64,000 nt of DNA from Escherichia coli O157:H7 (GTDB lineage: Bacteria > Pseudomonadota > Gammaproteobacteria > Enterobacterales > Enterobacteriaceae), in the NCBI RefSeq assembly GCF_013167455.1, contig NZ_CP038328.1; one strand, given 5' to 3'. This document shows positions 3,001-6,000 of the stretch, piece by piece. Numbering within the stretch: position 1 is the first letter of the stretch; each line of letters opens with the position of its first letter. A program made the position numbers.

Positions 3001-6000
3001 CCGAACGCCAGCGCGAATGAGAAAAAGGACGCGGAAATGCTCGACGAATATCTGCATTCCGCCGACTGGTTTGATGCCATGCTGTTTGATGCCACCGATG
3101 CCATCCTGAAAGGCTATTCCTGCATGGAGATTGAGCACGGGATGCTCGGTAAAATGCACATCATCCGCGCCATCCGCTGGCGTGACAGCGGGCATTTCTG
3201 CCTTAACCCGGATGATTTGAGCGAACTGCGGCTGCGTGACGGCAGCCATGCCGGGGTGGCGTTTCAGCCCTTTGGCTGGATAGTGCATCAGTCACGTTCA
3301 CGCACCGGTTACGGCGGCGCAACAGGGCTTGTCAGAACGCTTATCTGGCCGTTCATTTTCAAAAACTATTCCGTGCGCGATCTGGCTGAATTTCTGGAGG
3401 TGTACGGCCTGCCGATGAAGGTCGGTAAATACCCGTCCGGGGCAACGCCGGAGCAGAAAAGCGCCCTGATGCGGGCGGTGATGGATATCGGGCGACGTAC
3501 AGGCGGGATCATCCCGGCCGGGATGTCTCTGGAGTTTCAGGCAGCCGCGAACGGTCAGGCCGATCCGTTTGAAACCATGATTTCGTGGGGGGAGCGTTCC
3601 ATCTCCAAAGCAATACTCGGCGGCACGCTGACCACGGAAGCCGGAGACAAAGGCGCGCGCTCGCTGGGTGAAGTGCATAACGAGGTGCGCCGGGAAATCA
3701 GGGATTCTGATTTACGCCAGCTGGCCGCCACGCTGAACCGCGATCTGGTGTATCCGCTGTATGCCCTGAACACCGCCCACGCCATTGATATCCGTCGCCT
3801 GCCGCGTATCTGTTTCCAGACAAAAGAGCCGGGGGATATCACCAAAATCACCAGTGCGGTGATGCAGCTCAGTACGGGGATGGATATTCCTGATCCCTGG
3901 GTACGGGACCAGACCGGTATTCCACAGCCTGCCCCCGGTGAAGCCATCTTCCGTGTCCGTCAGAGTGGCAATGAACCTGCTCAGACAGACAAAGAGATGC
4001 CACCGGAAAAACAGGAAAAGACAGAGCAGACGGCGCTGTCAGCCCGACTGCCGGAAGCGAAAAGCAGCCCCCGTGATGAACTGGACGATATGGGGGATGC
4101 GGTGCCTGCCCGCCGGTTACAGGACGCTATCGACCTGCTGCTGGAGCCGGTCATTGATGCCATCAGAACGCGGGGGCTGGCGGATGCGCTGGCAGACCTG
4201 CCTGCCCTTTACCGTGAAATGGATGATTCCCGCCTGATGACGCTGCTCAGTGATGCCATGTTTGCTGCGGAAATGAAGGGGATGCTGGATGGCACAGGGG
4301 ATTGATTTAGGTTATGCCGCCACCCTTCCCTCAAAAGAGGCGGTGGCATACTTCCGCGCCAAAGGGGCGCATATCAGCTGGAACTGGTTCGAAACAGACG
4401 CGGATGTTCATGCCCGTTCATTCACGGCGGCAAGAGTGGCACGCCTGGACGTACTGACCACACTACAGGCGGAAGTGCAGCGTGCTGTTGATGAGGGGAT
4501 TTCACAGAAAGCATTTATCCGCACACTGACGCCCCGCCTGCAAAAGCTGGGATGGTGGGGAAAACAGATTGTGGTGGACAGTGCCGGTAACGCGGAAGAA
4601 GTGCAGCTGGGCAGTCCCCGCCGTCTGGCGCTGATTTACAACGTGAACACCCGTGTGGCTTACAATGCCGGGCGTTACACGCAGATGATGAACAACACGG
4701 ACACGCATCCGTTCTGGCAGTATGTGGCGGTGATGGACAGCCGCACCCGCCCGGCGCATTCCGCTCTTAACGGTCTGGTATTCCGCTATGACGATCCGTT
4801 CTGGAATACACACTACCCACCCAATGGCTGGAACTGTCGCTGCCGTGTCCGGCCATTGTCTCAGGCCCGTCTGGATGCAATGGGGTTATCCGTTTCATCC
4901 GGTCAGGATCATCTCTCCACCCGCAATGTTGAGGCTGGCGTGGATAAGCAGACCGGGGAAGTCAGAGAAATGCCGGTGACCACATATTCAGATGGCACCA
5001 GAACCATGACACCGGATGTGGGCTGGTCATATAACCCCGGTTCGGCGGCGTTCGGCACAGACCAGGCGCTGATCCGTAAACTGATCGAGGTGAAAAGCCC
5101 GGCGTTACGGGAAATGGTGGTTCAGGAGATGAACAACAGCCCGGAGCGGCAGCTGGCGTTCCGCATCTGGGCAAAAAACATCATGAAAACCCGGCGAGGC
5201 GGTAACGATATCCGCACGCTGGGCTTTATGACCGAAAGCATTGCGCAGGCGGTGGAAAGCCGGACGGGAACGCCACCGGCCCGCCTGCTGGCGATGAGCG
5301 GTAAAAATGTGCTCCATGCGGACAGCATGAAACATCAGAATGACGGTATCGCCCTGACACCGGAGGATTTCGGGCGCTTACCGGCAATGCTGGCAAGGCC
5401 AAAAGCGGTACTGTGGGACAAACGGCACAACAATCTGATGTATATCGTGGAAAATCAGGATGGCAGTGTGCAGATTGCCGTTAATGCACCGTACAGCCTG
5501 AAGCGTCAGCCGGATAAACTGGATGTGATTGTTAATGCTTACCGGGTTATCAATATGGATAAGCTGAAATCGGATATCCGGGGCGGAATGCTTGAGGTAC
5601 TGGAAGGAGATATTGATTAACGGTCAGTGGCGGGGGTCGAACCCGCATACATGATCCACCCGGAGGCAGGCACCGACTTTACCAGTTAAGCGTACACTGA
5701 CCGCCTGCTTATTTTATATTCATATTTTATACGGAGGCAATATGTCATCCATTGATGCCGCCGTCGTTGTTGACGTTACGCGTCTCCAGCGGGTCTTTGC
5801 CCGGCTTCAGTTTGTGGGTGGCGGAAAAGACCTGGCCCGCAGTGTGGCGTCCAGCCTTCTGTCATCGTCAGAAATGGCGTTTGAACAGGAAAAAGAGCCG
5901 GACGGCGAACGCTGGCATGACTGGTCAGATCCTTACCGCAAGTGGCGTACCCGTAAGGGATACATGCCCGGCAAAATCCTGACGCTGAACGGCGATCTGG

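Follow-up and report, generated by a model that had tools for sequence, protein, structure and literature searches.

The stretch of DNA analysed here, 64,000 nucleotides (nt) of contig NZ_CP038328.1 from Escherichia coli O157:H7 (the window), carries genes of a Mu-like prophage, and between two of these, the morphogenesis genes F and G, lies a structured element that an earlier note had picked out by its inverted repeats. Comparative analysis indicates that this element is very probably a selected, independently transcribed gene on the minus strand for a tRNA-like RNA that does not decode. The F-G gap, which had been taken to be 85 base pairs (bp) long, actually measures 121 bp (the F stop codon ends at 5620 and the G ATG lies at 5742), and the structured part of it is 5621-5703. 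The features of the locus are as follows.

5621-5703, minus strand: tRNA-like small RNA, spanning 83 nt with both end bases of its closing helix included (Rfam tRNA model; our covariance model R1; label tRNA-OTHER from the Prokaryotic Genome Annotation Pipeline, PGAP)
5695-5703, minus strand: 5' strand of the closing (acceptor-like) helix, CGGUCAGUG (sequence and covariation)
5621-5629, minus strand: 3' strand of the closing helix, CACUGACCG, with no CCA encoded; the F stop codon abuts it on the other strand
5676-5691, minus strand: D arm, GCUU-AACUGGUA-AAGU, with conserved G18, G19 and A14-type residues (cmscan alignment, D-stem covariation)
5650-5675, minus strand: substitute for the anticodon arm, with the proximal pairs GUG/CAU and then the hairpin CUGCC-UCCG-GGUGG (folds)
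5669-5656, minus strand: that hairpin, with a UNCG tetraloop at 5664-5661, no 7-nt loop and no anticodon (folds)
5630-5646, minus strand: T arm, GCGGG-UUCGACC-CCCGC, whose T loop has the canonical form UUCRAYY (sequence, Rfam alignment, covariation)
5711-5716, minus strand: -10 box TAAAAT, ending 7 nt before the closing helix (promoter scan)
5735-5740, minus strand: -35 box TTGCCT, with an 18-nt spacer, overlapping the reverse complement of the Shine-Dalgarno and start region of G
4289-5620, plus strand: gene F, a head morphogenesis protein of 443 amino acids (Phage_Mu_F and MuF_C; Pfam), given for context
5742-6215, plus strand: gene G, a virion morphogenesis protein of 157 amino acids (Phage_tail_S; Pfam), given for context

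On the minus strand, from 5703 down to 5621, the RNA begins with CGGUCAGUG-UAC-GCUU-AACUGGUA-AAGU-CGGUGC-CUGCC-UCCG and, after the UCCG loop, continues as GGUGG-AUCAUGUAU-GCGGG-UUCGACC-CCCGC-CACUGACCG. The inner 7 bp of its closing helix correspond to an acceptor stem and the outer two to positions -1:73 and -2:74, and one extra C (5692) stands between position 9 and the D stem. Much of what the earlier note had read from the sequence is borne out: the outer 9-bp inverted repeat is present (cggtcagtg at 5621-5629, cactgaccg at 5695-5703), the T-arm-like hairpin GCGGG-TTCGACC-CCCGC is exact on the minus strand at 5646..5630, and the anticodon arm that could not be fitted is indeed absent, its position being taken by a 5-bp hairpin with a 4-nt UCCG loop (5669..5656). 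The element thus has a tRNA-like structure, for which the minus strand gives the best reading, and the lack of an anticodon arm sets it apart from a canonical tRNA. A further pair, GCAGGC (5666-5671) and GCCTGC (5703-5708), also exists, but it is not nested as had been supposed, the second copy overlapping the outer stem and reaching outside it, and its pairing is not maintained in relatives.

Standard tools see this RNA poorly. In a 700-nt search with relaxed filters the Rfam tRNA model matches 5701..5622 with 31.0 bits (E = 1.9e-4) against a gathering score of 29, and the element is not reported by a default run of Rfam over the whole window at gathering thresholds. ARAGORN never calls these elements in the window or in 17 loci, and in many E. 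coli genomes, for example E2855, NCBI PGAP labels the identical sequence 'tRNA-OTHER'. The sequence therefore scores above the threshold of the tRNA family and lacks the anticodon loop that defines a tRNA (a 5-bp stem with a 7-nt loop containing U33). Our own covariance model R1 scores 91.8 bits at 5709..5614. The folding energy of the single sequence is insignificant on both strands (z = -1.3 and -1.4), and the decisive support beyond chance lies in the comparative data.

These data show selection on the structure. In an alignment of 37 distinct sequences, which was guided by the model and thus somewhat favours its structure, 94.8% of the cells form standard pairs, compared with 35-58% when the partners are slid by 1-3 columns. 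Compensatory changes on both sides occur in 16 of the 18 base pairs, no shuffle attains any of the observed measures, and a separate MAFFT alignment gives the same picture of covariation. Eight of the nine pairs of the closing helix, the two outer ones included, have changed on both sides; the D stem alternates between GCUU/AAGU, GAAU/AUUC and GAUU/AAUC, and the T stem between GCGGG/CCCGC, GUGGG/CCCAC, GCAGG/CCUGC and ACGGG/CCCGU. Because the T loop (UUCRAYY), the D loop (AAC(N)GGUA), a U at position 8 and a UAU before the T stem are conserved across the family, the residues of the tRNA elbow and core are present. The strand can also be told: 35 cells hold G·U in the minus sense, and only 4 hold A·C, the combination that reads as G·U in the plus sense. 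Relative to the window, the core is 71-95% identical in 11 relatives and the adjoining 300 nt of F and G are 50-71% identical in 10 of these, the exception being L061 (L numbers denote our comparison loci), where the 5' end of G is 98% identical and the core 88%. The arm that replaces the anticodon arm ranges from 44 to 96% identity in the same relatives.

Transcription of the minus strand would begin at a sigma-70-like promoter, TTGCCT-N18-TAAAAT at 5740..5711, and the position of the -10 box predicts a start at about 5705-5703. Of 31 distinct upstream regions, 28 have a -10-like hexamer whose end falls 4-11 nt short of the helix, compared with 18% of shuffles, and family promoters usually have either a -35 box at a spacing of 17-18 nt or a TGn extension, several showing an extended TGn -10. 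The minus-strand RNA is probably expressed. Where copies stand in tandem, the internal ones lie about 25 nt apart without promoters, which implies processing of a longer precursor.

The replacement of the anticodon arm runs through the family. Among 32 distinct arms folded, none has a 7-nt loop: the loop is 4 nt long in 18, 3 nt in 5 and 5 nt in 2, and the remaining 7, mostly of the type that we call B below, have loops of 6-18 nt. C(UNCG)G tetraloops cap 8 of the 18 arms with 4-nt loops, on unrelated stems, and a change from UCCG to UUCG between close relatives preserves the tetraloop class. With a short capped hairpin in the place of the anticodon arm, the RNA should be unable to decode. We sought a conserved motif in the arm and rejected the one candidate, a tandem G·A found in some type B arms and absent from others. 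At L086:2120-2440 (minus strand) three elements stand in tandem, one with a 6-bp stem and an AUU triloop in the anticodon position and another with a 15-nt insert there.

Pattern scans and BLAST found the element in E. coli Mu-like prophages, in IMG/VR viral contigs, and in gut and other metagenomes; among 5,426 complete E. coli genomes, blastn shows a copy in 229. Two pattern scans of 100,044 species-representative genomes gave 0 matches, so that the taxonomic range is not readable from them. R1, built from 18 distinct copies, was run on 80 Mu-like loci gathered independently via the G protein, and it matches 28 of them, always antisense to G and ending about 30-65 nt upstream of the G start, at G identities down to about 41%. 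Of the signs that the earlier note had named for testing its proposal, a covariance-model match and conservation in related Mu-like phages are both present. The F-G gap of loci with the element is 111-177 nt, or 367 nt in L086 with its three copies; in loci without it F and G mostly abut or overlap, and the presence of a gap goes with the presence of the element. In phage Mu, whose F is 60% identical, F and G overlap and there is no element, and Shewanella phage MuM16-1, the only named phage that we found to be related to the more distant members, also lacks it though a relative that bears the element has a G 86% identical to its own. Because Mu and MuM16-1 do without it and the gap tracks it, the unit is a moron, an accessory insertion subject to gain, loss or exchange.

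Two other occupants of the F-G gap deserve mention. L133:2360-2445 (minus strand) holds a more divergent tRNA-like sequence without an anticodon, GGCGUGG...CCGGUUCGAUUCCGG...CCACGCC, which R1 misses; the family probably extends beyond the 28 of 80 loci. In a different Mu-like clade, with G about 30% identical, an unrelated antisense small-RNA gene occupies the gap at L111:2392-2500 (minus strand) and also in L112, L113, L118, L119, L120, L128, L130 and L134. Its promoter, TTGACT-N17-TATATT, lies over the G start; the small RNA, for which Rfam gives no match, has a branched hairpin that exposes CCUCCAAUC, and its intrinsic terminator is strong. It would seem, then, that antisense RNA morons have a hotspot at the F-G junction.

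By their bodies the E. coli copies can be sorted into three types, A (the window), B (L002, L003, L139) and C (L014, L063, L138), and these types are swapped as a cassette between E. coli prophages that are otherwise 95-98% identical. The exchanged unit in the window is the following.

5389-5730, no strand assigned: exchangeable cassette, made up of the tRNA-like gene with its promoter and the final ~77 codons of F (sliding-window identity)

Sp18-like prophages share 96-98% identity over the first 900 nt of F and 94.5-98% over G, while window positions 5389-5730 are only 44-82% identical; outside the cassette sliding-window identity is 92-100%, and the right edge is sharp at the G ribosome-binding site. 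The C-terminal tail of F (the last ~20-77 residues, within window 5389-5620) is hypervariable among E. coli prophages that are otherwise 96-98% identical; the tails end ...INMDKLKSDIRGGMLEVLEGDID, ...KKEALLDDLRGGKLELLEGEL and ...NKFDIEKAIEGGKLELLEGKL, and the tail changes together with the RNA type. O157:H7 strains have either type C or type A with a G57A variant of the T loop (UUCAACC). PGAP gives no annotation to this allele, which occurs in L053 (O157:H7 FRIK804) and some 80 further E. coli genomes, though within the RNA it is one base away from the allele that PGAP does annotate.

All three types also meet on a satellite-like island of 8.4 kb inserted in mdtP (L050:33646-41700, that is, NZ_CP075652.1 2238645-2246700; also L033, L034 and L044), which is present in about 14 complete genomes. 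The island has genes for an integrase, Ash-like and Icd-like proteins, a RepA-type helicase, SSB, PerC and a Mor-family activator, and it ends with three tandem tRNA-like copies in the order C-B-A, one per type. Their bodies are 79-88% identical to phage copies of their own type and 60-75% identical to other E. coli types. PGAP labels one of them 'tRNA-Tyr', apparently because of its 6-nt UGUACA loop.

Our best overall explanation, which we hold tentatively, is that the RNA is a non-decoding tRNA mimic that would act in trans. In this reading the gap holds a self-contained accessory unit on the minus strand, with a sigma-70-type promoter followed by a gene for an RNA of about 83 nt that takes the L-shape of a tRNA through its acceptor-like helix, its D and T arms, and the elbow-forming residues of the D and T loops. 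Such an RNA would be made in the lysogen, independently of late transcription, and would accumulate as a stable tRNA-like molecule. It might bind a protein that recognises the tRNA body, that is, the elbow and the acceptor/T helix, outside translation. Because a tRNA body and a closed, non-decoding arm are both under selection, mimicry without a part in translation seems the natural reading. Conflict loci typically are accessory, come in allelic types and are swapped as cassettes, and conflict between phage and host or between phages would be the likeliest setting. As an example of such a role, the RNA could be a decoy for, or inhibitor of, a tRNA-targeting or tRNA-processing factor that acts independently of the anticodon, although we regard a protein-decoy mechanism as possible at best. 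Immune effectors can choose tRNAs by the acceptor stem and not by the anticodon, as a study of the toxSAS FaRel2 describes (PMC11559606).

Several points weigh against mimicry in trans. A mimic must compete with the very large cellular pool of tRNA. Across the 5,426 complete genomes no host E. coli tRNA is close enough for a blastn match, and every context examined is a prophage or satellite copy, so that nothing indicates imitation of one particular tRNA. The free acceptor end that many tRNA-binding enzymes need may not exist, because positions -1:73 and -2:74 are paired and covarying in most members (AU, GC, UA, CG, UG) and no CCA is encoded. Finally, the proximal arm is conserved in a type-specific way and type B has open loops of 6-18 nt, which hints that the arm may carry specificity for which a pure body mimic would have no use. 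It is still more speculative, and in our view rather unlikely, that these RNAs form a new class of phage RNA, namely anticodon-less tRNA mimics in exchangeable types A, B and C, with one per transposable phage and all three in a satellite, which would serve as RNA-based determinants of counter-defence or immunity, either by inhibiting immune effectors that recognise the tRNA body or as partners of the co-varying F tail.

A closely comparable mimic is the bacterial Y-RNA-like YrlA, whose ends lie in the stem replacing the anticodon arm and whose acceptor-like stem is closed. As is proposed for our RNA, YrlA is a non-decoding mimic of the tRNA body, and it too occurs on mobile elements (PMC4201824). 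Unlike it, our RNA has its ends at the acceptor-like helix, with the 5' end as placed by the promoter, and F and G as its neighbours; no rsr/Ro gene stands among the annotated neighbours, and there is no Rfam YrlA match. The tRNA-like domain of tmRNA likewise combines an acceptor and a T arm with another helix in the place of the anticodon arm, but our RNA has an intact D stem, no G3·U70, no tag reading frame and no pseudoknots. The tmRNA model gives only weak partial matches of 15-18 bits against a cut-off of 47 (17.6 bits for the member in L029), and ARAGORN finds no tmRNA. For its part, tmRNA influences Mu repression. We also considered tRNA-Sec and allo-tRNAs (8/5, 8/4 and 9/3 arrangements, 12-13 bp of acceptor and T helix in all, with a long variable arm and an anticodon) and rejected them, for here 9 + 5 bp make 14, the linker in the place of the variable loop has 4 nt, and there is no anticodon.

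We take the remaining explanations in descending order of probability. The first is that the RNA is a base-pairing regulator on a tRNA-like scaffold, comparable to the C4 RNA of phages P1 and P7 and the CI RNA of P4, in which the variable arm would confer specificity and the types would be immunity-like specificities. We judge this unlikely, even though the arm is what differs between types, its proximal part is conserved within types, and type B arms do offer open loops; the swapping of the cassette between near-identical phages and the presence of all three types in a satellite would also suit it. The window arm contains CCUCC and has an 8-nt complement to the G ribosome-binding site and a 12-nt complement to 20495-20506. 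Yet the 8-nt match is lost in types B and C, though the site is the same or similar there, and complementarity within the own prophage is at chance level by blastn-short (the best 12-mer of the 64-kb window has E = 0.42, and for the 46-kb L136 locus, which is complete, E is about 1). Only chance-level complements, then, represent sites of the C4/CI type in the window and the complete L136 prophage, where short kissing contacts are still possible. The arms of types A and C and many others are closed by stable 3-4-nt loops such as UUCG, which make poor seeds. The 12-nt site, on the plus strand inside or near the tail-fibre region, is an exact complement, CACCCGGAGGCA, of the central hairpin and is probably a chance match.

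The C4 and CI RNAs themselves are substrates of RNase P. Like the present RNA, whose stability and expression in the lysogen we presume, they are small, stable and structured RNAs of temperate phages and satellites that are expressed in the lysogen and have type-specific variants. P4-like satellites use antisense RNAs of this class (PMC3632133). Most arms of the present family are closed by tetraloops rather than presenting pairing loops, and the RNA has the complete four-arm shape of a tRNA. The Rfam C4 family gives no match, either at E <= 10 in the 700-nt search or at E <= 0.1 in eight relatives.

A second explanation, to which we give little credence, is that the RNA is a natural 'tRNA scaffold', in which the body would provide processing and stability and the hairpin would be the payload, for example an aptamer or a decoy for a hairpin-binding protein. 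In the engineered tRNA scaffold the anticodon arm is replaced by an RNA of interest, and the murine gammaherpesvirus 68 (MHV68) vtRNAs and mascRNA similarly use the tRNA shape for processing, stability or mimicry and not for decoding. These precedents differ from our RNA in being eukaryotic or artificial, and our RNA has nothing attached downstream. The diversity and type-specificity of the arms would fit a payload, and the third satellite copy (CAGCC-UGUACA-GGCUG) and the window arm (CUGCC...GG(U)GG) presumably bear a loose likeness to the repeat hairpin of type I-F CRISPR. Many arms, however, are minimal G+C stems capped by UUCG, UCCG or a triloop, with no room for a payload, and it is the body and not the arm that is most strongly conserved.

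It is improbable, thirdly, that the RNA is the cognate partner of the hypervariable F tail, a neutraliser or cofactor that would match it as an immunity gene matches the tip of a polymorphic toxin. Just downstream of MuF is where MuF-type polymorphic toxins have their immunity genes, and the divergent cassette always holds the last 27-77 codons of F together with the RNA and ends sharply at the G ribosome-binding site. Against this, Mu has a 60%-identical F without the RNA, the satellite carries the RNAs without an F gene, and recombination tracts alone can explain the linkage. The window F is a standard protein with Phage_Mu_F and MuF_C and no extra domain in Pfam. We rejected F as a toxin-bearing MuF protein, since Pfam shows those two domains only.

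A chargeable tRNA-like molecule, matured by RNase P and RNase BN/Z, given a CCA and served by a synthetase that ignores the anticodon, so as to be used or to sequester outside decoding, is quite improbable. The cloverleaf and the residues of the tertiary pairs are intact, G-1:C73, a hallmark of tRNA-His, occurs in the window type and several others, and the subgroup L083-L087 has an ordinary acceptor stem of 6-7 bp, with -1:73 and -2:74 unpaired, and an intrinsic terminator 5 nt downstream of the RNA, like a normal tRNA gene. The discriminator, on the other hand, is not conserved (pair -1:73 is AU in 14, GC in 13 and UA in 5), pair 3:70 is CG, UA, AU or GC and never GU, so that there is no G3·U70, and most members combine a closing helix of at least 9 bp with the lack of an encoded CCA. 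A similar balance emerges from comparison with phage tRNA genes (RF00005). Our RNA shares with them the acceptor, D and T arms of the cloverleaf, a canonical T loop, a D loop containing GG, the absence of an encoded CCA that marks many phage tRNAs, and the organisation of a tRNA gene, with a promoter and in some cases a terminator. It departs from them as a family without an anticodon loop, with a closing helix that is usually at least 9 bp long and pairs the discriminator position, with an extra nucleotide before the D stem, with a borderline score (31 against 29 bits), and with no ARAGORN call.

Two explanations that the earlier note had offered fare worst. That the element is a tRNA remnant, whether a decayed pseudogene or a functionless piece of an attachment site, could be argued from its missing anticodon and from its being overlooked by ARAGORN and default Rfam, but the comparative data contradict this and make it very improbable: the acceptor, D and T helices are all kept by compensatory changes although the F and G proteins are only 39-47% identical, the core (71-95%) is better conserved than the flanking coding DNA (50-71%) in 10 of 11 comparisons, the promoter is conserved, the position is fixed in phages of different hosts, and Mu-type phages transpose and use no tRNA attachment sites. 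A plus-strand cis element of the late mRNA between F and G, be it a terminator, an attenuator or a site for RNase processing, is the least probable of all, for although the element lies inside the late operon and the complement of a cloverleaf also folds, it is contradicted by the G·U count of 35 to 4 in favour of the minus strand, by the conserved minus-strand promoter, by the lack of any terminator-like site (a G+C hairpin with a U run) on the plus strand in 5621-5741, by the central hairpin, which becomes CCACC/GGCAG with two mismatches on that strand, and by satellite copies outside any late operon.

We return to the non-decoding mimic for what it would mean. Databases already list the element as 'tRNA-OTHER', and its kind, tRNA-like non-coding RNAs or tRNA mimics, is known; we found no description of this RNA in a literature search in which subscription journals are incompletely covered. 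The family is well defined and under clear selection. If it is expressed and a mimic, it would be a compact example from bacterial viruses of the tRNA body used beyond decoding, and a candidate for an accessory factor made of RNA alone in phage-host conflict, of which few are known. An 83-nt gene in the Sp18-type Mu-like prophage of many Shiga-toxin-producing E. coli, O157:H7 included, is directly testable, and natural allelic types as well as natural null phages (Mu, D108, SfMu) exist for comparison. In addition, because annotation pipelines either miss the element or call it 'tRNA-OTHER' or 'tRNA-Tyr', counts of phage tRNAs are inflated or confused.

A few observations concern neighbouring stretches of Mu-like genomes. 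In a G+C-rich Mu-like contig, L131:822-909 (minus strand), about 1.5 kb upstream of the F-G junction, matches sRNA-Xcc1 with 63.9 bits (cut-off 53). On the other side of G, the window has a 176-nt gap (6216-6391) before the protease gene; the corresponding G-I gap of Mu holds an annotated gyrase cut site, and the stretch after G in Shewanella phage MuM16-1 has extra genes, including one for a reverse transcriptase.

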